This document shows positions 1-62,500 of a DNA stretch of 64,000 nt, piece after piece. This DNA is from Patescibacteria group bacterium (GTDB lineage: Bacteria > Patescibacteriota > Minisyncoccia > Phycocordibacterales > UBA9973): assembly GCA_030916965.1 (NCBI GenBank), contig JAUPVQ010000012.1:776-64775 (forward strand), written 5' to 3'. The position numbers were made by a program, and so were the translations under genes. Each line of letters starts with the position of its first letter. Within the stretch, counting starts at the first letter, position 1. Under the pieces are notes generated by a model. It was not told the origin of the DNA, searched no databases, and was given only the letters and a program-made list of their open reading frames with translations.

Positions 1-1155
1 ATTTTCTATCTCGCCTACCACACCATCGCCAAATACTTCTTTGAAATTCTCTACCTTATATATAAATGCATTATTTTCTTTTGAATATTTTACAAATGAC
101 CGCGCAAGAATGTGCGACGAGCCAAGATCAAGCGAGCTTGCAATACCCATTACATCCGATCCATCTTTAAATATATTTATTTTATGAACTGCCGGCACAC
201 CCATTGTGATAGTACCGGTCTTGTCGAAAAGCATCCCTTTCACTCTAGACAATTTCTCGAGTGCTCCACCATCCTTTATAATCACGCCACGCTTAGCAGA
301 ACGACTCATGCCAGAGATAATGGCAATTGGGGTTGCAAGTATCAGCGGGCAAGGTGTCGCAACCACAAGCACTGCTAGCACTCGAGTCCAATCACGAAAA
401 ATGAACCATGTTATAGCTCCTATAACAAATGTAACAACTGTAAAAAATACTGCGTACTTGTCTGCAAGGCGCACAATTGGCGCTCTGGATTCCGAAGCAC
501 TTTTTACAAGTGATACAATCTTGGCATAATGACTATCACTTGCCTTTTTGAGTGCTTTTATTGTCAGCATCCCACTTGTATTCTCCGTACCTGAAGACAC
601 ATGCATGCCAACAGTCTTGTCTTGAGGTATTGATTCCCCTGTTAGACTCGATTCATCTACGAGAGATGTGCCAGTTATAATTACCCCATCAACTGGAATA
701 ATAGTCCCTGATTTGATTAGAATTTCATCACCAATATTTACATCCTCTATACGCACATCGTGATGCACACCATCTACTATTTTTATAGCATGTGTTGGTG
801 CCCGAGCGAGCAATCTAGTCAATTCATATTTAGCCTTGCTCATGGCATAAGTTTCCAATGTCTGACCACCAGACAGCATAAGCACTACCACAAGTCCTGC
901 CAGATTTTCACCAAGTAAAAATGCTCCCACTATGGCAACTCCCGCTATCAAGTCCACTCCGAAGTGCCCTCGAACAATACTTTTGATAATTCCATACAAA
1001 ATTGGCAAGCTCAAGACTGCAAGTGATATATTGAAAAATATTTTCAGAGTATCAATAAAACCAAATAAATAAAAAAATCCTCCAAGTGCGAGCACAAGCA
1101 GGGTTAAAATTGCGACCCAAGTTTCGAAACTAAATTTTTTAAGAGAGTTAATCAT
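1..1155 (-). CDS. Heavy-metal/cation P-type ATPase (P1B family), N-terminal ~385 aa. The gene runs off the left edge of the window (partial).
   Basis: Minus-strand ORF starting at ATG 1155 and open to position 1. Translation shows N-terminal TM helices, the TGES actuator motif, the TM6 motif ATPCPLILATP (PCP variant of the CPx motif) and the phosphorylation site DKTGTIT. It is absent from the ORF track only because no stop codon lies in the window. Confidence 0.85.
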   Translation of the reverse strand, partial: MINSLKKFSFETWVAILTLLVLALGGFFYLFGFIDTLKIFFNISLAVLSLPILYGIIKSIVRGHFGVDLIAGVAIVGAFLLGENLAGLVVVLMLSGGQTLETYAMSKAKYELTRLLARAPTHAIKIVDGVHHDVRIEDVNIGDEILIKSGTIIPVDGVIITGTSLVDESSLTGESIPQDKTVGMHVSSGTENTSGMLTIKALKKASDSHYAKIVSLVKSASESRAPIVRLADKYAVFFTVVTFVIGAITWFIFRDWTRVLAVLVVATPCPLILATPIAIISGMSRSAKRGVIIKDGGALEKLSRVKGMLFDKTGTITMGVPAVHKINIFKDGSDVMGIASSLDLGSSHILARSFVKYSKENNAFIYKVENFKEVFGDGVVGEIEN

Positions 1156-53813: not shown

Positions 53814-55280
53814 TTATTCAAAAATATCTTGCTTGTTTTCATCCACTTCTGGCTTAATCTCAAGCTTTGTTTCTGGCATTTGCACTATTGGTGTTTGCAC
53901 TACTGGCACAGCCAACTCTGGGGTTGTGTTGGTTTTTACCTCAGGGACCGCTTTTATTTCTTCTGTTTTTTCATCTTTTGCATCCATTACTTCCTCTACC
54001 TCTTTTACAACCTCGGCTACACTTTCACCCTTTTTGCCTTGAAGCAAATGTGATATTACTTGTAATTTGCGCAATACTTTGTGACCCCATAGATAATGAG
54101 TAAGGTAGAGCAATACCAGTAGTAGAAGTAACAACAACAACATAATACTTGAATTATTTGTAAACCATCGCGCAAGGGCTGTAGGTGGGCGAACAGAAGT
54201 TTGTATATCTGTACTGTTACCTGCCATATCATATGCACGGATAATTACACGAGAATTTGCTACAGCAGAAACGGGCACTTGGTACGGACTCTCGGAACGC
54301 ACAAAAATTGGAGAAGAAGTCTCCCCTTGAGTTTTGTCGATTACACCAATCTCATAATGATCTATACCCGATAGACTGTCTGTGCTGAAGAATGAAACTA
54401 ATGCTTTATCAATATTGTCAGTTTTTATATAATCAACTTTTGGCTTAAATTTAGCAGGGGCTGTTGTATCTATTCGAAATAGATAATGTGTAGTTGTGCC
54501 CCATGCTCCACCCTCATTGAGTGATTTGATATGGAAATACCACAAGCCATCGGTTAGATCTTGGTACGACTTAGAAGTTTCGTTTAGTATATTTTTATTA
54601 TCTGGAATAGTATTTGGCTTGTTGTCTAGGATATAACTAAAGCCGACAATTTTGGGATCTTTGTTCCAGGCTACAGTTGGACTATTGTTGTTATACCAAT
54701 GATCTTGGAATTGATGGGTGTCGGAATATATTGTTAATCCCCCAGGAGATTTTGGCAGTATTGTATACAACCCACGACTACTTGTGAGGATTGCTTGTGA
54801 TCCAAGCCCATCATTTGCCAACACGTTTGAACTATCCAATACTCGAATCTCTGTTGTCCCTGTATTCTTTGCTTGAAACGTTATCGTAATGATCAATGCT
54901 GAATCAGAGACAATCCCCCCTGGAACTGTTCCCACAAAGCTTGCTGTACCGTTTGTGTTGTCATACTTTGGTGGCTGAACCCAGATACCGATAATTGATT
55001 TACCAGTAGAGGGTTTGATAATACTCAACTTATTGGGGTCAAATTTTAAATTTAACTCTATGGCATTCATGCTCTGCCCTTTTGTATTTAAAAGTATTGG
55101 TACTTCAAAAATTGACCCTTCTATAAAAGTAGCAGAACTTGGATTAACCGATATCTCAGCTCGAGCTATCAGCGTCGATGCATCTACATTTACCACCTGT
55201 TCTGCATATATAAAAGATGCATTACCAAGTAATAATATTAAACCTAATATTAATGAATGTACTTTTTTATATTTATACAT
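53814..55280 (-). CDS. Membrane-anchored surface protein with an N-terminal cohesin-like domain (paralogue 1 of 3)
   Basis: Signal peptide. ~140-aa domain NAIELNLKFDPNKLSIIK...ASFVGTVPGGI...ITITFQAKNTGTTEIRV with cohesin-like beta-sandwich periodicity. Ig-like middle domain. Poly-Leu TM helix and an acidic cytoplasmic tail. Confidence 0.55.
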   Translation of the reverse strand: MYKYKKVHSLILGLILLLGNASFIYAEQVVNVDASTLIARAEISVNPSSATFIEGSIFEVPILLNTKGQSMNAIELNLKFDPNKLSIIKPSTGKSIIGIWVQPPKYDNTNGTASFVGTVPGGIVSDSALIITITFQAKNTGTTEIRVLDSSNVLANDGLGSQAILTSSRGLYTILPKSPGGLTIYSDTHQFQDHWYNNNSPTVAWNKDPKIVGFSYILDNKPNTIPDNKNILNETSKSYQDLTDGLWYFHIKSLNEGGAWGTTTHYLFRIDTTAPAKFKPKVDYIKTDNIDKALVSFFSTDSLSGIDHYEIGVIDKTQGETSSPIFVRSESPYQVPVSAVANSRVIIRAYDMAGNSTDIQTSVRPPTALARWFTNNSSIMLLLLLLLLVLLYLTHYLWGHKVLRKLQVISHLLQGKKGESVAEVVKEVEEVMDAKDEKTEEIKAVPEVKTNTTPELAVPVVQTPIVQMPETKLEIKPEVDENKQDIFE

Positions 55281-55285
55281 ATTAA

Positions 55286-56338
55286 TTATTTTTCCTTATT
55301 ATAAATGCAGGGGCCAAATAATTTACATTTAGGATGATTACGGCAATACATTACTCTGTACCAGCCATACAATATTATTATCATTACAAAGAGTAGAATG
55401 ATTGGTATCATAAATAGGAATATATTTGTAGTTTTTGTTATTACCAATTTAGGCTCCTCTTGTACAGAAATTTGAAGCGGGATTGTTTCTATACTCTCAA
55501 CTCCTTTGGCATTACGAGCTCGGGCTACTATTGTATACATTCCTTTTCTTGCTCTGCTTTCTGAGACATATGTATAGTTTCCTCTTTCATCTGCTTTGAT
55601 AGTTGAAGTTTCATGTAAAAAATTACTACTATCCAACAATTGTGCATCTAGATTGAAGATAACATCATGCAATGGTAATGATGTACCTTTTATCACAATA
55701 AAATCATTCTCACGTACATTGTTCGAATAATCTGTAAAGATAGGTACCGGCACTATATCTATTTCTATCTCTACTTTTTCTATTGGTATAGTTGGTGTTG
55801 GTGTTGGTGTTATTTCTGGAGTTTTGATCTTTACTGATTCCGAGATATTGAAGTTGGAACCTCTTGTATTATTTAGTATTGGTGTACCTGCCCCGTCATG
55901 AGCTAGGACTGAAGCATTCTCAAATTTGATACTTGCCTTACCATTTGATTTGGCTTTAAAAAACAAAGTTAGTATGATTCCATTACTTCCTTGATACCCC
56001 GACAGTATTACTCCGTCTAGATTAAGTATTCCATTTGCGTTCGAATACGATGGCTCGACTGGCCAAACATTTACAATTGAGTCGGATTTTGAAATAGAAC
56101 TCAGAGTAAGCAAATCTTTCGAAAAAGTTACAGTACCTGATATTGCATTGGCAATCTTGTCGCTACTAGATAAAATTATCCGTGCTTTTATTGTGTCCCC
56201 TACTTGTACGCTACTAGATGCTGGAGAAATACTTAGATCTGCAGCATGAACAGTATAACTTGAGAAAATAAATAAAATTACAACCAAAAAGCAAAATACA
56301 GAATACTTAGAAAAATTTTGTTCTCTTACTATGTGCAT
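55286..56338 (-). CDS. Membrane-anchored surface protein with an N-terminal cohesin-like domain (paralogue 2)
   Basis: Signal peptide. TVTFSKDLLTLSSI...GILNLDGVILSG...ILTLFFKAKSNGKASIKF. Thr/Pro linker TPEITPTPTPT. C-terminal TM helix. Confidence 0.55.
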   Translation of the reverse strand: MHIVREQNFSKYSVFCFLVVILFIFSSYTVHAADLSISPASSSVQVGDTIKARIILSSSDKIANAISGTVTFSKDLLTLSSISKSDSIVNVWPVEPSYSNANGILNLDGVILSGYQGSNGIILTLFFKAKSNGKASIKFENASVLAHDGAGTPILNNTRGSNFNISESVKIKTPEITPTPTPTIPIEKVEIEIDIVPVPIFTDYSNNVRENDFIVIKGTSLPLHDVIFNLDAQLLDSSNFLHETSTIKADERGNYTYVSESRARKGMYTIVARARNAKGVESIETIPLQISVQEEPKLVITKTTNIFLFMIPIILLFVMIIILYGWYRVMYCRNHPKCKLFGPCIYNKEK

Positions 56339-56346
56339 ACTTAATA

Positions 56347-57201
56347 TTATACCCTATATTTACGCAAATATCGACGGTATATGTACAAAACACAAAACAT
56401 AAGCCCCACAATTAATAGAACAATTACTAATATCAGCCACTTTGATAAGAGGATTGATTCTCTTGCGTTCCCATCTGCATCAACAGCACGAACAATTACT
56501 CTGTAAAATGGGGTTTGGTATTTTAATAAATGAGGTGATTCGGATTTTATGCAATTTTGTCTACTGAATTCACATACTTCATAATAATCAATGCCTGTCC
56601 CTTTGTCCTGCGCACTATACACCAAATACCATTTATTATCATATATGTATATGTTCCTTGTCCTTTCTGTTGTGAATTTTTCTGGTTTTGTTTTATCATT
56701 TGCAATAATCTGTTCCTCAACTTGTGTTGTATTTTGAGTAATATTTAAACTACTATTATTTACGGTAACAGTATCTTTTGTGCCTTCCCCATCATTCAAG
56801 AATAGATTTATATTTTCAAGAGTTATGCCAGTCTTTCCTTCATTAACACCTCTGAAAATTACAGAAAATACATCCCCCTGAGCTATCGTTATGCCTCCAG
56901 GCACAATCCCAGAGAAATGAATCCTACCTTCATTTACAAAATTTGGCTTCTCAACCCAGAAGCTTATAAAAGAATTCCCAATGTTAATTTTCTCAACTTT
57001 TAGGAAATTTTTGTCATATACTAAATCCCCCTCAACTGTATTGATTGAATTTAATTTCGTATCTAATTGTACATTTATAGTAGAAAGTTCTCCGGTCTTT
57101 ATGTTACTCTTTTCTACTGTTAAATTGACAGACGAAGCACTCGCAACATCGCTTACAAATAGTATACATAATATTATAATTGTTAATTTAATTTTTTTCA
57201 T
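56347..57201 (-). CDS. Membrane-anchored surface protein with an N-terminal cohesin-like domain (paralogue 3)
   Basis: Signal peptide MKKIKLTIIILCILFVSDVASA. DLVYDKNFLKVEKI...RIHFSGIVPGGI...VFSVIFRGVNEGKTGITL. C-terminal TM helix. Confidence 0.55.
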   Translation of the reverse strand: MKKIKLTIIILCILFVSDVASASSVNLTVEKSNIKTGELSTINVQLDTKLNSINTVEGDLVYDKNFLKVEKINIGNSFISFWVEKPNFVNEGRIHFSGIVPGGITIAQGDVFSVIFRGVNEGKTGITLENINLFLNDGEGTKDTVTVNNSSLNITQNTTQVEEQIIANDKTKPEKFTTERTRNIYIYDNKWYLVYSAQDKGTGIDYYEVCEFSRQNCIKSESPHLLKYQTPFYRVIVRAVDADGNARESILLSKWLILVIVLLIVGLMFCVLYIYRRYLRKYRV

Positions 57202-57470
57202 ATATTTATTTTCTGACCATAAAAATACTCTTTTAGCATTCGCTTTAATAAACGACTTCCTTGGCTTGTTTTAAGATATTTTTCTCTTCTCTTTGCATCT
57301 TGTTCATTTAAATATGCTTCATAATGAATAATACTCCATGGTCGTTTGCTTTTAGTAGAAAGATTTAGACCTTTATTATGCGCTTGTAATCGTGTTTTTA
57401 AGTCAGCTGTATAGCCTTTATATAACTCGCCATTTACTTTGCTTTGTAATATATATGTGTAATAAAACAT
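57198..57470 (-). CDS. Small GIY-YIG nuclease-family protein (90 aa)
   Basis: FYYTYILQSKVNGELYKGYTADLKTRLQAHNKG...RPW. Confidence 0.8.
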   Translation of the reverse strand: MFYYTYILQSKVNGELYKGYTADLKTRLQAHNKGLNLSTKSKRPWSIIHYEAYLNEQDAKRREKYLKTSQGSRLLKRMLKEYFYGQKINI

Positions 57471-57483
57471 AAATTTTTATTTA

Positions 57484-57572
57484 TCCTGTCCACAGGGTAG
57501 TGAAAGTTGGCATAGCGCTTTGCGCGCTCCGATTAGTATCGGAGCAATGCCAACTTCTACTACCCTGTCCAA
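57484..57572. repeat. ~90-bp compound palindromic structured element
   Basis: Arms CCACAGGGTAGTGAAAGTTGGCAT / ATGCCAACTTCTACTACCCTGTCC (about 21/24 bp complementary) enclose two short hairpins (AGCGCtttGCGCGCT and CCGATtagtATCGG). Confidence 0.55.
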
Positions 57573-58921
57573 TAATACGCCATTATACTAAAGTCGACTA
57601 AGTTAATTTTGCTATCACCATTTAGCTTAAGCTTCTCTAAAGCAAGTGTTTGAGTATTCAACACTTTCTTATACCAAAATGCAGCGATAGAAAAGTCTAC
57701 TAAATTCACTTTGCAATCATTATTTAAGTCACCTTTTTGTGGACACTTTTTATCAACTGGGGCTATGTTTTCAGATCCAACAGAAAAATTATACCCATTA
57801 CTATACCCACTAATTTCTCCTCCAGATGCAACTTTTGATTTTGCATTATGTCCCCCAACCTCCAGCACTGACGTATCCATTGTATGAAGATATACTCCAT
57901 TTTTATCAGAATTTACTTTTCTAAATATTTCTTCGTTTGAGTGAACAGCAATTGTCACTTCACTTTCGGGAACTGCCTGTCCAAAAAATGTAATATTATC
58001 GCCCTTTTTGACTGTGCTTTTATCACCGGTTAGTGTCGGTGACAGGAATATTCCTCCTACATTTATTGTTACACCTTCAGTGATTGTTATGGGAAAAGAT
58101 TGAAGGACTGATTTGATGCCATTTTTATCTGAAGAGTATACGCTGAAAACATATACCCCAGCGCTTGCACCATTGATTTGAATATTAAAATTTGCATCAG
58201 ATCCCGAGACTGTACTTGCGACGGTCTGACCATCCTTCAAAAGTGTTACAGGGCTCAGTGGGTATGCCTTACCGAAAATAATTACCTTTGTGTTCGGTGT
58301 TCCTCCGCCACCCCCTCCTCCACCGCCGCCTCCTCCGCCTCCACCACCACCGCCTCCTCCTCCAGATGCTGCGGGTGTTGAACTAACAATCGCAGATTCA
58401 TTCAATAGAAATCCTGCGGCATATGAGCGAATTTTGAAATAGTATGTTGTGCCATTTGTAAGACTTGTTTGTATAGAGGTTAATACATTACCAACATTAC
58501 TGTAAGTATATGTGCCTCCAGATGATGTGCTAATACCCACTTCATAACTTGTAACATTTGCAAATATACCAGTTGATGCTGTCCAATTGAGAGTCACTTG
58601 AGTATCACCAGCCGTTGCAGATACAACAGGCGAACTTGCTGTAGGGAAATAAAGGAAACCAGCATTTTGAGCGAAGTTGGAACTAGTACTTTGGCCTTGT
58701 GTGATCTGACTTGTACTTGATAAATACTGAAAGCTCGATGAAGATGCCTGTCCTCCTGATATAACTGCAGTTGATGGATTCTCGAGATTAAAGCTTGTAC
58801 TTGAAAATGCAGATGCAAAAGAAAAAAACACCAATCCAAAAAATAGAATCAGGGAAGTTTTAAAAACAAAAATTCCGTTAATCTTATTTTTTTTCTGGTG
58901 TTTTTTCTTGAACGTTTTCAT
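57560..58921 (-). CDS. Secreted multidomain protein with an Fn3-like domain, a Gly22 linker, Ig-like domains and a C-terminal dockerin-like domain
   Basis: Signal peptide. Fn3-like QVTLNWTAS...TSYEVGIS...TTYYFKIRSYA. 22 consecutive Gly. C-terminal duplicated Ca-loop segments GDLNNDCKVNLVDFSIAAFW and LNGDSKINLVDFSIMAYYW. Confidence 0.65.
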   Translation of the reverse strand: MKTFKKKHQKKNKINGIFVFKTSLILFFGLVFFSFASAFSSTSFNLENPSTAVISGGQASSSSFQYLSSTSQITQGQSTSSNFAQNAGFLYFPTASSPVVSATAGDTQVTLNWTASTGIFANVTSYEVGISTSSGGTYTYSNVGNVLTSIQTSLTNGTTYYFKIRSYAAGFLLNESAIVSSTPAASGGGGGGGGGGGGGGGGGGGGGTPNTKVIIFGKAYPLSPVTLLKDGQTVASTVSGSDANFNIQINGASAGVYVFSVYSSDKNGIKSVLQSFPITITEGVTINVGGIFLSPTLTGDKSTVKKGDNITFFGQAVPESEVTIAVHSNEEIFRKVNSDKNGVYLHTMDTSVLEVGGHNAKSKVASGGEISGYSNGYNFSVGSENIAPVDKKCPQKGDLNNDCKVNLVDFSIAAFWYKKVLNTQTLALEKLKLNGDSKINLVDFSIMAYYWTG

Positions 58922-59005: not shown

Positions 59006-59443
59006 TTACTGAGCCTTCGCAGGAGTTGTTGTTGTTTTTGCTGCTGGTGCTGCTGCTGGTGGAGTAACTGATTTTGCATCACCAATATTTAGTGGTGCAA
59101 CATCTAGAATCTTGTTCATTCCTACACTGTATAGTATTGCTTTTTTTGCTTGTGCGTAGATTAGAACTTTGTCACCCTTTACAGCATTTGCGAAGAAGAC
59201 TTGATCCTTCAATGCCTCAGGATCTGACACTGTTGCTACAGTTGGTGTCTCCTCTGTTGGTAGTACTACCAATTTACCAACCTTCACTACAAGCGCTTCT
59301 ACTTCTTGTTGCGCTGCTATATTTGGATCCTTTTTAAGATCGCGCACTTGCTTATAAAAATAACCTGCAGCCAAGATTGCAATTATCGCAATTAATGGCA
59401 CTACAACTTGAACAAACTTCTTTTTTACAATATCATTTTCCAT
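59006..59443 (-). CDS. Hypothetical N-terminally membrane-anchored protein (145 aa) with an Ala/Pro/Thr-rich C-terminal tail
   Basis: TM helix VVPLIAIIAILAAGYFY, then a small domain. C-terminus PPAAAPAAKTTTTPAKAQ. Confidence 0.45.
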   Translation of the reverse strand: MENDIVKKKFVQVVVPLIAIIAILAAGYFYKQVRDLKKDPNIAAQQEVEALVVKVGKLVVLPTEETPTVATVSDPEALKDQVFFANAVKGDKVLIYAQAKKAILYSVGMNKILDVAPLNIGDAKSVTPPAAAPAAKTTTTPAKAQ

Positions 59444-59555: not shown

Positions 59556-62500
59556 TTAAAAAAATCTAAATAAATTCCCAAATAAATTCCTAAATGATTG
59601 TCTGAAATTTATAGAACCCGCAGATGCAAGCATTGATCGTGTATAAGAGAACCCTAGGTCTCCTCCTCCACCTCCTCCTTGGCCTCCATTACCTGCACAT
59701 CTACCCCCAGAGTCTACTCCAGTCTCATCACCATTTTGTATACTATCTGCACAAGTACCTACATCTCCACTACCTTCACCACCTGCTCCTCCACTGCCAC
59801 CATCCACTCCTCCTCCAGTAACTCCGCCTTGTGGTGTTGCAGATGATTCGACAGATCCACCAGACCCGCCGCCACGTGATCCAACAAAGAATACCCATCC
59901 ACAGTTATGGTTAACATCAATACTTGTTCCATCACTTGCAATCCAACTTGCACCTCCAGAAGCACAGCTATCCTCAATAGAGATATACGAAACTGTGTTT
60001 GTGCCACTACTATCTACCAAATACCAATATAAACTCGGGATAGAGCTCTTTAAGCTAATGCGTGAACTAGCATTTGTATCTAGCGTCAGAGAACTTATTG
60101 TAGTAGTAGTACCTTCTGTGAAATTAATATCATGTGCACCAGTTCCATCATCTTTGAAATCATTAAATGTATTACTTCCTGTTATAGTATAGCTTCCTGT
60201 CCCCGTACTTGGTGCAAGCCAAATATTATTGTATGTACCACCGCCGAGAGCTAATGTTTTGGCATTTGAAGATGAATCTGTAAATTTAATTGTTGAGGTA
60301 TTTGCTGTATATGTACCTGAATTTGTAAATACATTTCCAATACCAGACAATGTTAAAGTGTAACTACTTCCATCTAGTGTGCTTGAGGCACCTATTGTTA
60401 GATTGCTTGCTGTTGTGTCACCGCCAAGTGTTTTTGTTCCAGCACCTGATGTGTTCAAATTTGCATATGTTATCGCTTCATCAACAGTCTGAGTACCTGC
60501 TAATGCATAGTCTACTGTGGAACCAGAGTCCATAGTACGAGTTTCAAAGCTTGGATAAGTTCCTGCAAAAGTAGAATGCTGAACTTTAATCGTTGCGCCG
60601 CTGCTTACAGTTAATGTATTGGTTCCACTACCTGTTGCTGTAAAGCTCGTTGTTGGGTCAAAAGTTCCAGCCGATATTGTCAGGCCATTTGTTACTGTCA
60701 AATTCTCACCTAGAGATTTCGTGCCAGTACCACTCGATGTCAGATTGTAGAAGCTTGGATTTCCAGATGCTACAGTTGCACTACCATTACCTATCATATC
60801 AACATTTGAAGTCCCTGCAGTAAATGTACCACTTGATTTTGTAAACAATATTCCAGATGCTCCTGTCAAACTAACAATCGAAGCCTGTGGGGTAAACGTT
60901 CCTCCGTTTATAGTTATTGTTCCTGCCCAAACTGTATAATTATTTGCAGCTGTAGTATCAAATGTTCCAGCAGATATAGTTAGTGCTCCTGTTACAATCA
61001 GAGCTGCGTCCAAAGATTTTGTTCCAGCTGAATATGAGGTCAAATTATTAAATTCAGGTGATCCACTTGCTACTGTCACATTTTGGGTAGACGATGATGG
61101 TGCATAAGTATATACATACCCTGTATATGCTCCTCCTATAAATTTCACTCCATCAGCTGATGATGCCACGCTCTTCCAGTTGCGAGCACCCGCACTCGTT
61201 TGTTCTGTCCAATTAACTCCAGAATCAACAGACGTCATTACATAGTCTCCACTTGCTCCCGCAATCAATTTATTTCCATTATCAGACATTGCAATTGTTT
61301 CCCAATCATGAACTCCAGAATTTGTTTGTTGTGTCCAACTTGATCCTGAGTTTGCTGATGTATATATGTAGCCTGCATTGTTTACTGCAGCCAATTTTGT
61401 ACCATCACTCGATATTGCAACATCATACCAAAGACGTGAACCAGAAGCGCTACTTTGTGTACCCCAGCTTGCTCCAGAATCGGTTGATGTGTAGATATAC
61501 CCACTGTAAACTGTAGCAGCCAATTTTGTACCGTCAGCCGATGAAGCAACACTTGTCCAACCTGCAGTTCCCGAAGCATTACTTTGTGTGCCCCATGTCA
61601 CCCCACTGTCTGTTGATGTGTATATATAGTCACTATCTGCTGTTGCTACAAGCTTAGTGCCATCACTTGATGATGCAATTCCAGTCCAAGAGTGCTGTCC
61701 TGAAGAATTGCTGTTTGTTGTCCATGTTACCCCTCCATCACTTGATGTATATATATATCCATTATTTCCATCAGTGGCAGCAAGTTTTATTCCGTCTGTT
61801 GATGAGGTAATACTATTCCAAAAATGCGAACCAGAAGAATTGCTATTGGTACTCCATGTTGCACCATTATCTACTGATGTATAGATATATCCATTATAAA
61901 CTACAGCAGCCAATTTAGATCCATCAGCAGAAGATGCTACACTACGCCAATTGCGTGTACCAGACCCTGTCTGCTGTGTCCAAGAGCTTGCCCCACTTGC
62001 AAGATACACATTGGAAGTACCAGCATTAAATACCCCGTATCTACCTTTTGTAAATAATGTACCTGTTGTCTCGTTTAGGGTAATCGTTGAACCGTTTGCA
62101 GTCAATCCTGCAGTAGCAGTATTCGCAATATTTATTTTGCCAAAAATAATATCGTAGTTGTTTGCTGATGTTGTATCGAGTGTACCATCTGTGATTGTGA
62201 GAGTCCCTGCAGAATTACCAGTGATCGCTCCACCCAGAACATACGTCTCAGCGCTGTTGTTAATAGTCAGATGATAATAATTTGTACCTGCTACTGTGGT
62301 ATTGCCACCACTATTGTTACCAGTATAAGTAACTGTACCAAGATTTGGGGTAAATGTACCCGTAACGACAAATGGTGTCCCAGTTGTTCCTGAAAGTGTG
62401 GTATTAAATGTACTTGCATCAAGAGTACCTGCTGTAATCGTAAGTACTCCACTCACTGTTGTGTCTCCTCCTAGTGTTTTTGTGCCACTACCTGATGTAT

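Follow-up and report, generated by a model that had tools for sequence, protein, structure and literature searches.

What would an ultra-small Patescibacterium do with three cohesin-like genes and a dockerin gene set side by side? The first-pass annotation of the window (the whole 64-kb stretch of DNA analysed here) had proposed three consecutive minus-strand paralogues, and all three ORFs are present (proteins A, B and C; Table 1). The similarity of their N-terminal ~140-aa domains is significant in every pairing (A-B, E=4e-18; A-C, E=4e-17; B-C, E=2e-15), and a C-terminal Ig-like domain is common to A and C (E=1e-9). The architecture described as shared by the three does hold for the signal peptide, cohesin, Ig-like domain and C-terminal TM segment, but A has an additional domain of ~100 aa in the interval between cohesin and Ig. 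The dockerin gene, protein D, had been placed downstream of the cohesin genes; in the order of transcription it lies upstream of C.

Table 1. Features of the cohesin-dockerin locus in the window (nt, nucleotide positions in the window; aa, residues of the protein named)
Feature	Position	Strand	Composition or basis
Protein A, 488 aa	53814..55280	(-)	signal peptide, cohesin, extra beta domain, Ig-like, TM helix, charged cytoplasmic tail of ~90 aa
Protein A cohesin domain	aa ~37-178, nt 54747-55172	(-)	Pfam Cohesin
Protein A TM helix	aa 379-397, nt 54090-54146	(-)	hydropathy
Protein B, 350 aa	55286..56338	(-)	signal peptide, cohesin, Pro/Thr linker, Ig-like domain, TM helix
Protein B cohesin domain	aa ~33-186, nt 55781-56242	(-)	paralogy to A and C, orthologue Pfam matches
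Protein B TM helix	aa 306-324	(-)	hydropathy
Protein C, 284 aa	56347..57201	(-)	signal peptide, cohesin, Ig/Fn3-like domain, TM helix
Protein C cohesin domain	aa 23-155, nt 56737-57135	(-)	AF2 model and Foldseek
Protein C Ig/Fn3-like domain	aa 178-252	(-)	
Protein C TM helix	aa 254-281	(-)	hydropathy segment aa 256-274
GIY-YIG nuclease-family gene, 90 aa	57198..57470	(-)	Pfam GIY-YIG, E=1.7e-15; between D and C
Protein D, 453 aa	57560..58921	(-)	signal peptide, Ser-rich segment, Fn3, poly-Gly linker, two Ig-like domains, dockerin
Protein D Ser-rich low-confidence segment	aa ~39-92	(-)	three SxSF/SxNF repeats
Protein D Fn3	aa 95-182	(-)	
Protein D poly-Gly linker	aa 186-208	(-)	
Protein D Ig-like domains	aa 210-292 and aa 300-382	(-)	
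Protein D dockerin	aa 394-453, nt 57563-57742	(-)	duplicated segment, extreme C-terminus
Protein S, 145 aa	59006..59443	(-)	N-terminal TM anchor and conserved ~90-aa extracytoplasmic domain; directly upstream of D
Giant secreted protein, >1480 aa	59556..64000	(-)	5' end beyond window

The cohesin assignment, originally made without a search, was borne out by both profile and structure. Protein A scores 40.3 bits against Pfam Cohesin (PF00963; cutoff 24.1), and its more than 466 homologues are all from Patescibacteria, many of them named 'cohesin domain-containing protein'. Proteins B and C themselves have no Pfam match. Among their orthologues, however, 12 of 36 for B (best 1.3e-9) and 11 of 37 for C match Pfam Cohesin at E<=0.01 and match no other family, and the family HMMs of B and C cross-match A, B and C at E 1e-31 to 1e-46. 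The fold was compared for one of the three, protein C, whose AF2 model has a pLDDT of 89.4. When this model was searched against the PDB with Foldseek, as the earlier annotation had suggested, all of the top 50 matches were cohesins at probability 1.00 (for example, 2w1n at E=1.9e-11, 6kgc_A at TM 0.79 and 2xdh at TM 0.78), with target-normalised TM of 0.7-0.79 and rmsd of 2.3-3.5 A for single-domain cohesin entries. The superposition on solved cohesins predicts a nine-stranded jelly-roll beta-sandwich for C. Hydropathy shows a single signal-like segment at the N-terminus of A, B and C and a single TM segment near the C-terminus of each. They are single-cohesin proteins, exported via the signal peptide and fixed in the cytoplasmic membrane by the C-terminal helix, with the cohesin farthest out on a stalk of one or more Ig-like domains.

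Protein D, which has more than 1899 homologues and tandem Fn3-like matches, has a hydrophobic segment at the N-terminus only and is a secreted protein that lacks an anchor. Its tail consists of two tandem ~22-residue segments, each with an EF-hand-like Ca loop followed by a helix, the loops being judged by Asp/Asn at positions 1, 3, 5, 9 and 12. Loop 1 (D398-N400-D402-N406-D409) is invariant or nearly so across the family. Loop 2 reads K432-N434-D436-N440-D443, Asp at its first position being confined to the short-linker orthologues; this Lys in the D of the window counts against a pairing model. The description of the tail as a 'textbook' duplicated dockerin fully fits repeat 1 only, because repeat 2 has Lys rather than Asp at that position. 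Likewise, the match to Pfam Dockerin_1 (PF00404) is essentially full length (model positions 1-53 of 57), but at 18.4 bits the D of the window falls under the cutoff of 22.9. The dockerin call itself stood: many D orthologues carry PF00404, some being named 'dockerin type I' by NCBI, the family tail profile retrieves only dockerins from the PDB (E 2.3e-7, for 2y3n_B, to 4e-4), and the AF2 model of D (pLDDT 80) has three confident tail helices at 407-415, 423-432 and 441-452 (pLDDT about 90). At the family level, the sequence evidence therefore points to a type I dockerin. Both repeats share a DFSI(A/M)A(F/Y) helix face, and symmetric helix faces of this kind permit dual-mode cohesin binding in type I dockerins. 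HMM and structural matches to cohesin and dockerin were thus found where their absence had been named beforehand as the outcome that would speak against the proposal.

The cluster is a conserved Patescibacteria operon of giant protein, S, D, C and B, with A in addition in some genomes. Its genes are co-oriented and almost contiguous, and this order, with A variable, recurs in distant Patescibacteria of at least two classes; loci L001 and L003, for example, have identical gene order despite unrelated flanks. Relatives of D are encoded in no fewer than 525 species genomes. Of 56 well-flanked loci, 55 have a cohesin ORF that begins at most 700 nt from the D stop, and at least two cohesin ORFs downstream. 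The first of these classifies as C in most loci and is followed by B in nearly all, B being a longer B+A fusion in other lineages, while A in other genomes is variable in position or absent. Exactly one dockerin ORF was present in each of 82 loci (+/-10 kb); the set of three cohesins is one variant in a range of 2-4 genes per locus. A ratio of 2-4 to one is odd for simple 1:1 pairing.

The neighbouring genes differ in their attachment to this operon. The small anchored protein noted beside the module is protein S, a conserved cluster member: its orthologues precede D in about 60 of 80 loci, their alignment has 15 invariant columns, and no relatives were found in Pfam, NCBIfam or PDB. As for the giant BNR-repeat surface protein, BNR/Asp-box-like repeats are present at aa ~640-900 of the visible part; the ORF runs on to the edge of the window and is hence 5'-truncated, so that the protein is longer than 1480 aa. 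It also has beta-helix-like Thr/Gly repeats, a Cys-rich motif and poly-Gly near the C-terminus, and weak G8 and F510_1955-like matches (38.5 bits for F510_1955, cutoff 175); neither a dockerin nor, in the visible part, an anchor was detected. In 54 of 81 loci, S/D is preceded by an ORF of at least 800 aa, in many cases cut off at the boundary of the fetched region, and between lineages the sequences in this position are mostly unrelated. The giant protein of the window occupies this hypervariable slot of the cluster. The GIY-YIG gene is an insertion outside the conserved system, found at the D-C position in just a small number of relatives (L004, L006, L032, L059) and at different places in other loci. 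The adjacency to tuf, which the earlier annotation had mentioned, is not conserved in other loci and is incidental. The cluster does often lie among core genes, for example tuf, ychF and those for ribosomal proteins, and wide conservation beside housekeeping genes also fits a general envelope role.

No part of D is more conserved than the dockerin tail (67% mean column identity, versus 53% for the whole protein). Of the best 150 among 1148 representative clusters found at E<=1e-10, about 147 have this tail at their very C-terminal end. The cassette of poly-Gly, two Ig domains and dockerin bears different N-terminal heads in other genomes, and these head-swapped variants occupy the same D-C-B slot, which is consistent with modular display. 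All heads inspected on D-type proteins (Fn3, Cys-rich or Ser-rich repeats) are non-catalytic. The topologies of A, B and C on the one hand and D on the other fit, by hydropathy, a membrane socket and a free plug.

The reading towards which we lean, if only slightly, is that the cluster is a non-cellulosomal surface-mounting system in which cohesins and dockerin pair. D would be exported by Sec, and its dockerin would then plug, in a Ca2+-dependent manner, into the cohesin of C and/or B, or less likely A, tethering D to the cell. The poly-Gly linker, two Ig domains, Fn3 and Ser-rich N-terminal segment would point outward. Because the same cassette carries different heads in other genomes, the distal head may be the specificity element; it could contact a host or partner surface directly, or hold and organise the hypervariable giant protein, which we connect to the system purely by conjecture. 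S might serve as an assembly or anchoring accessory.

It is also conceivable, though unlikely, that the domains are real but unpaired, with the cohesins binding some other target (the giant protein, the Ser-rich segment of D, cell-wall polymers or host glycans) and the dockerin serving in Ca2+-dependent folding or oligomerisation or binding a partner encoded elsewhere. Outside cellulosomes, there are cohesin-like and dockerin-like modules for which no partner is known to have been demonstrated. The excess of cohesins over the single dockerin in each locus would fit such an arrangement. So would the mirror-tree result, which gave no cohesin-domain-specific co-evolution with the dockerin, the Ig control domain of C scoring the same as the C cohesin. 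Residues 35-90 of D are conserved, yet modelled at pLDDT <50, as expected if this stretch becomes folded only when bound to a partner. Direct pairing is, however, the simplest account of the strict co-occurrence and adjacency of the one dockerin gene and the cohesin genes across hundreds of species, and the dockerin implies a conserved protein partner because its helix faces are almost invariant.

A housekeeping envelope complex, such as an S-layer or wall-spanning anchor or a factor in cell shape or division, would not be a device for host attachment or display, and would reduce the cohesin-dockerin contact to structural glue; we consider this quite unlikely. The breadth of species with D relatives and the frequent setting among core genes would suit it, as would the 94% aa identity of D between strains whose B proteins differ by 26%. 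On the other hand, a hypervariable giant gene and swapped D heads are what one typically sees where diversifying pressure acts on interaction or adhesion surfaces, not in housekeeping scaffolds, and conservation does not reach into the flanks of the cluster. A minimal complex of the cellulosome type that degrades polysaccharides, with anchors for dockerin-bearing glycoside hydrolases encoded elsewhere, is very improbable: although cohesin-dockerin pairs are best known from cellulosomes and the giant protein has its weak BNR and F510_1955 glycosylhydrolase-like match, the cluster is not a cellulosome, in agreement with the earlier annotation, because no carbohydrate-active enzyme or CBM domain in it passes a curated threshold; nor is there a scaffoldin with several cohesins and a CBM (A, B and C have one cohesin each), a confident catalytic domain, or a second dockerin ORF in the window or within +/-10 kb of the 82 loci, where the sole dockerin sits on a non-catalytic protein.

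The proposed surface-mounting system has partial parallels. In the anchoring proteins OlpA/OlpC of Clostridium thermocellum and ScaE of Ruminococcus flavefaciens, both cellulosome producers, a surface protein likewise carries one cohesin, which here would capture a dockerin, and the C model superposes on Coh-OlpC (4dh2) and Coh-OlpA (3ul4). In contrast to these, the anchor is a C-terminal transmembrane helix instead of SLH repeats or a sortase signal, the putative partner is a non-catalytic Fn3/Ig protein with no scaffoldin, CBM or enzymes, and the host is an ultra-small Patescibacterium. The modules of the C. perfringens GH84/GH33 toxin complexes (2w1n, 2jh2, 2vo8) and the Archaeoglobus fulgidus cohesin (2xdh, TM 0.78 to the C model) are similar in having a role other than the degradation of plant cell walls. 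Structurally, C comes closest to the non-cellulosomal cohesin+FN3 double module of C. perfringens, with which it has the two-domain layout in common. The C. perfringens modules belong to secreted glycoside hydrolases and soluble enzyme complexes, whereas the cohesins described here are membrane-anchored, without enzymes, and share a conserved operon with the gene for a giant surface protein. The best sequence matches of the D tail are the type I dockerins of C. cellulolyticum (2vn5), A. cellulolyticus Cel5 (5nrm) and P. cellulosolvens Cel48 (2y3n), also with two C-terminal ~22-residue repeats of Ca loop and helix and equal faces on both helices. The recognition positions of D are hydrophobic (L-V/I at positions 10-11, A-F/Y at positions 17-18), where C. 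thermocellum dockerins have Ser-Thr and Lys-Arg. Unlike these dockerins, D has a conserved Cys pair bracketing Ca loop 1, and position 1 of loop 2 is often not Asp in the family. Within the Patescibacteria, the Saccharibacterium Southlakia epibionticum has an essential envelope protein, SEML1_0315, described with a dockerin domain and discussed for host interaction (Wang et al., Cell 2023, PMC10633639). It resembles D as a surface protein with Ig/Fn3-type domains and, by its authors' description, a dockerin. It is encoded by a stand-alone gene (927 aa) between an alpha/beta hydrolase gene and tRNA-Glu, with no cohesin neighbours, and is not orthologous to the cluster.

A bolder and unlikely version of the pairing model would make the operon a lineage-wide docking apparatus of Paceibacteria/ABY1-type Patescibacteria, in which a membrane-anchored cohesin platform, through one universal dockerin plug, mounts interchangeable heads and organises the hypervariable giant adhesin. 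A literature search found no paper on the operon, in line with the claim that such a module had not been described in these organisms, but the domains are already in public annotation; since NCBI already lists relatives under the names "cohesin domain-containing" and "dockerin type I", only the system is undescribed. Little is known of how CPR/Patescibacteria outside the Saccharibacteria attach to their hosts and interact with them, and the majority of their envelope proteins lack annotation. The cluster is a concrete, widely conserved candidate for host interaction, in at least 525 species-level genomes, and the proposed mechanism is simple, as small recombinant domains suffice for in vitro assays of cohesin-dockerin binding. 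If pairing fails, the system still shows the cohesin and dockerin families co-occurring for another reason. If it holds, the cohesin-dockerin principle would extend to a form of surface display in ultra-small bacteria that is membrane-anchored and works without enzymes, and the constant dockerin "plug" may help to locate the displayed cargo in any of the lineage's genomes. Were the docking apparatus real, episymbiotic host attachment across a major part of the CPR would have at its core a recruited cohesin-dockerin pair.

An ORF check of the window bore out the genes proposed in the first-pass annotation, all of which lie on the minus strand (see table). The three paralogues A, B and C are separated by gaps of 5 and 8 nt, and hydropathy analysis gave each one N-terminal signal-like segment and one C-terminal TM helix. 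D, the secreted Fn3/Ig protein, has the N-terminal segment only, while S, a small membrane protein, is anchored at its N-terminus. The ORF of the large secreted neighbour, hereafter the giant, is open to the window edge and is therefore 5'-truncated. The start of C is overlapped by 4 nt by a gene of the GIY-YIG nuclease family, which appears to be a small mobile or selfish gene rather than a component of the cluster. Among the loci fetched from other Patescibacteria (designated L), homologues of this gene occupy the position between D and C in L004, L006, L032 and L059, and other positions in L030, L034, L044 and L049. Scanning for promoters and terminators revealed no signal above chance, except for a promoter-like site directly upstream of D.

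Coordinates of the cluster genes, of sites within them and of related features in the fetched loci
Feature	Sequence	Coordinates	Strand	Length or remark
A	window	53814-55280	-	488 aa
B	window	55286-56338	-	350 aa
C	window	56347-57201	-	284 aa
GIY-YIG gene	window	57198-57470	-	90 aa; between D and C
D	window	57560-58921	-	453 aa
Cys pair of D	window	57713-57742	-	aa 394-403
Ser-rich segment of D	window	58646-58807	-	aa 39-92
S, small membrane protein	window	59006-59443	-	145 aa
Giant ORF	window	59556 to window edge	-	>1480 aa
C-terminus of giant	window	59556-59720	-	
Long B	L084	9895-11610		
Long B	L086	9956-11707		
Giant with Peptidase_S74	L010	2502-9449		
Giant with Peptidase_S74	L023	3329-9967		
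Giant with ~500-aa module	L003	3-6122		
Serine-hydrolase-like gene	L056	8374-9372		
Serine-hydrolase-like gene	L078	8461-9468		
Serine-hydrolase-like gene	L080	5930-6931		
Serine-hydrolase-like gene	L081	5071-6048		
Serine-hydrolase-like gene	L065	6267-7289		
Serine-hydrolase-like gene	L038	3996-5006		
Serine-hydrolase-like gene	L039	8468-9478		

The N-terminal domains of A, B and C, each of ~140 aa, are paralogous by BLASTP (A-B, 4e-18; A-C, 4e-17; B-C, 2e-15), and a membrane-proximal Ig-like domain is common to A and C (1e-9). Pfam Cohesin (PF00963) was matched directly by A, with 40.3 bits against a curated cutoff of 24.1, but not by B or C. In orthologue sets drawn from related loci, however, the family was matched by 12 of 36 B orthologues (best 1.3e-9) and 11 of 37 C orthologues (best 1.2e-7), with no second family matched in either set. 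Against the PDB, the C-orthologue profile retrieved a Ruminococcus flavefaciens cohesin (5aoz_A, E=0.0014), whereas the B-family profile gave weak matches only, to 7urp_A (deposited as "Ribonucleases G and E", E=0.012) and to a cohesin (E=0.06). The fold itself could be checked for C, for which AlphaFold2, using 33 homologues, gave a confident model (pLDDT 89.4, pTM 0.73) in which two sandwiches, the beta-sandwich of aa 23-155 and another of aa 178-252, precede a TM helix (aa 254-281). The best 50 Foldseek matches of this model in the PDB were cohesins without exception, in agreement with the original call. C. perfringens GH84C headed the list with its cohesin+FN3 double module (2w1n, E=1.9e-11), followed by CaCohA2 (TM 0.79, rmsd 2.3 Å), the non-cellulosomal A. 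fulgidus cohesin 2xdh (TM 0.78) and classical cohesins of types I and II. When the B- and C-family HMMs were run against all window ORFs, A, B and C were the only matches.

D scores 18.4 bits against Pfam Dockerin_1, short of the cutoff of 22.9, with positions 1-53 of the 57 in the model covered. It has more than 1899 homologues, many of which carry PF00404 and some of which are named "dockerin type I" by NCBI. A profile of 30 tails retrieved only solved dockerins from the PDB at E<=0.011 (2y3n_B, 2.3e-7; 5nrm_B, 2.1e-5; 1daq, 2mte and 4fl4_A, around 1e-4), and a generic EF-hand protein, 8z3f_A, was reached only at E=0.1. The tail had been described as a textbook duplicated dockerin, which is accurate for Ca loop 1 (D398, N400, D402, N406, D409), canonical and (near-)invariant family-wide, but not for Ca loop 2 (K432, N434, D436, N440, D443), which has Lys at position 1, where Asp occurs only in short-linker orthologues. 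A DFSI(A/M)A(F/Y) face is common to both dockerin helices. In the AlphaFold2 model of D (pLDDT 80), the signal helix is followed by a Ser-rich segment of low confidence (aa 35-90) and an Fn3 domain (aa 95-182). A poly-Gly linker then leads to a pair of Ig-like sandwiches (aa 210-292 and 300-382), and three confident helices come last (aa 407-415, 423-432 and 441-452). Tandem FN3 arrays dominate the Foldseek matches of the full-length model, so that the 60-aa dockerin is not resolved structurally and its assignment rests on the sequence profile and secondary structure.

Ca loop 1 is flanked by a conserved Cys pair, seen in alignments A4 and A6 in either of two registers, CPxKGDLNxDC or KCDLNxDxRC. 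A disulfide clasp is possible at this site; a Cys pair around the Ca loop is not known to be a feature of classical dockerins. The Ser-rich segment is also conserved, with three SxSF/SxNF(Y) repeats and a GFLYFP end, and is present in most D-type proteins, including the Fn3-less variants P0283 and P0353. Its pLDDT is below 50 in the AlphaFold2 model, and it may fold only on a partner.

The cluster is not peculiar to the window. L001 and L003, found as A homologues on long contigs, come from distant Patescibacteria with unrelated flanks, and the genes follow one another in the same order in both: the giant, one or two S genes, D, C, B and A. In a scan using one genome per species, a relative of D was encoded in at least 525 genomes. 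Among the matches listed, the record titles include Nomura-, Staskawicz-, Taylor-, Niyogi-, Uhr-, Magasanik- and Buchananbacteria, as well as Paceibacterota and Minisyncoccia, although some labels of bulk-assembled MAGs, such as "Saccharibacteria" or "Gammaproteobacteria", look unreliable. In 55 of the 56 fetched loci with sufficient flank, the D stop is followed within 700 nt by the start of a cohesin ORF, and two or more cohesin ORFs lie downstream. These 56 loci have two (33 loci), three (20) or four (3) cohesin ORFs, and exactly one dockerin ORF is present in each of 82 loci. The variable member is A: its gene follows B in some loci, while in others it precedes S or separates D from C, and it can also be duplicated or form part of a long "B+A" protein. 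Such a protein, of 570-600 aa, stands in for B in other lineages (e.g., L084 and L086); besides the cohesin and the Ig domain of B itself, it has the middle and Ig domains of A, a TM helix and a coiled, charged tail. It accounts for many of the loci with only two cohesin genes.

The closest relatives among the matches listed are annotated as Candidatus Nomurabacteria; A shares 87% identity with protein P0002, and residues 253-453 of D share 95% with L033. The position next to tuf, part of the initial description, is confined to the window and close relatives and is therefore incidental. L046 and L047, both complete and from a single MAG (CAYZGX01), were considered as paralogous clusters, but they are collinear including the flanks, at about 82-84% nucleotide identity, and therefore reflect strain or species mixing. 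Protein identity between them falls from D (94%) through S (88%), the giant (84%) and C (81%) to B (74%).

An exhaustive HMM search with a 61-aa D-tail profile yielded 1148 representative clusters at E<=1e-10, and in about 147 of the best 150 hits the dockerin match is no more than about 5 residues away from the C-terminus. Roughly half of the listed dockerin-tail proteins are 280-380 aa, as against ~440 aa. Inspection of the sequences revealed that one cassette of poly-Gly, two Ig domains and dockerin carries different heads: Cys-rich repeats in P0284, P0297, P0299 and P0310, SxNY repeats alone in P0283, and a ~430-aa head in P0353. Two of the head variants, in L084 and L086, take the place of D in the cluster, upstream of a C orthologue and the long B+A protein. 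No part of D is better conserved than the tail, whose mean column identity is 67% vs. 53% for the whole protein. A suspected likeness of the genes upstream in L084 and L086 to WxL/DUF916 surface-complex genes was without Pfam support and was dropped.

An ORF of at least 800 aa lies upstream of S/D in 54 of 81 loci, many of these ORFs ending at the limit of the fetched sequence. The giants are mostly unrelated in sequence, with a C-terminal module of ~500 aa common to about half of them, and the Peptidase_S74 tail-fibre chaperone domain was found in two of the four scanned against Pfam. This domain and the common module suggest that the giants are trimeric fibre-like adhesins. Peptidase_S74 (endosialidase / tail-fibre intramolecular chaperone) lies near the C-terminus of the two giants in question, those of L010 and L023. 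Giants with the ~500-aa module, such as that of L003, which has no Pfam match, end in Pro/Glu/Thr-rich tails. The window giant ends in a Cys-rich motif (CADSIQNGDETGVDSGGRC) followed by poly-Gly and a hydrophobic or amphipathic tail of ~35 aa, and similar "GD(L/V)G + tail" ends are found in the giants of L007, L048 and L006. The same Cys-rich motif and poly-Gly recur as the N-terminal head in some dockerin proteins of the D type (P0299), which hints at module exchange between giant-protein ends and D heads.

S is conserved lineage-wide, with 15 invariant columns across 36 sequences; no relatives were found in Pfam, NCBIfam or the PDB, and it is an orphan family tied to the operon. Recurrent neighbours of ~330 aa look, from their sequence motifs, like a beta-lactamase-like serine hydrolase and YchF, and are not part of the core. 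The serine-hydrolase-like gene, membrane-anchored and absent from the window, separates the giant from S in several loci and has class A beta-lactamase / PBP-like motifs (SLLK, YSDN, HKFGE).

Besides the domain identities, topology, synteny and head swapping demonstrated here, we infer a mechanism in which D would be exported and its dockerin would plug into a cohesin anchored in the membrane. The likelier sockets are those of C and B, since these two are the obligate neighbours of D. The stalk and head of D would then project from the cell, where the head would touch a partner surface or hold the giant, which is hypervariable, lacks an anchor and is encoded upstream. In mirror-tree analysis, the partial Mantel correlation of the dockerin was 0.217 with the C cohesin, 0.105 with the B cohesin and -0.055 with the A cohesin; the signal is not domain-specific, because the Ig domain of C, used as a control, gave 0.216. 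There is room for the cohesins to bind something other than the D dockerin, given that each locus has 2-4 cohesins to 1 dockerin and that a conserved stretch at the N-terminus of D stays unfolded when modelled on its own. A cellulosome-like role is very unlikely, and the non-cellulosomal reading of the first-pass annotation is supported, since the cluster has no scaffoldin, no CBM and no carbohydrate-active enzyme domain above a curated threshold, and neither the window nor the fetched loci yielded further dockerins.

With dockerin-cohesin anchoring of D as the preferred reading, the cohesins can be likened to OlpA, OlpC and ScaE, the single-cohesin surface anchors of cellulosome producers, and the cluster has further parallels in the cohesin-dockerin pairs known outside cellulosomes from C. 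perfringens and A. fulgidus. It is set apart from these in that the anchor is a transmembrane helix and the cargo a non-catalytic Fn3/Ig protein, that there is linkage to a giant and variable protein, and that synteny extends across a whole lineage of ultra-small bacteria. An essential "dockerin domain" protein of the Saccharibacterium Southlakia, SEML1_0315, has received a one-line mention (Cell 2023, PMC10633639). In our comparison it was ruled out as a D orthologue, being a 927-aa stand-alone gene in a different gene context. Domain-level annotation of cohesin and dockerin relatives is already in public databases. Provisionally, as subscription journals were thinly covered, our search of the literature on cohesin/dockerin in CPR, Patescibacteria, Parcubacteria and Paceibacteria found neither a description of the operon nor a report linking cohesin-dockerin pairing to Patescibacteria. 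The cluster is a concrete and cheaply testable candidate for surface-attachment machinery in a large part of the CPR.
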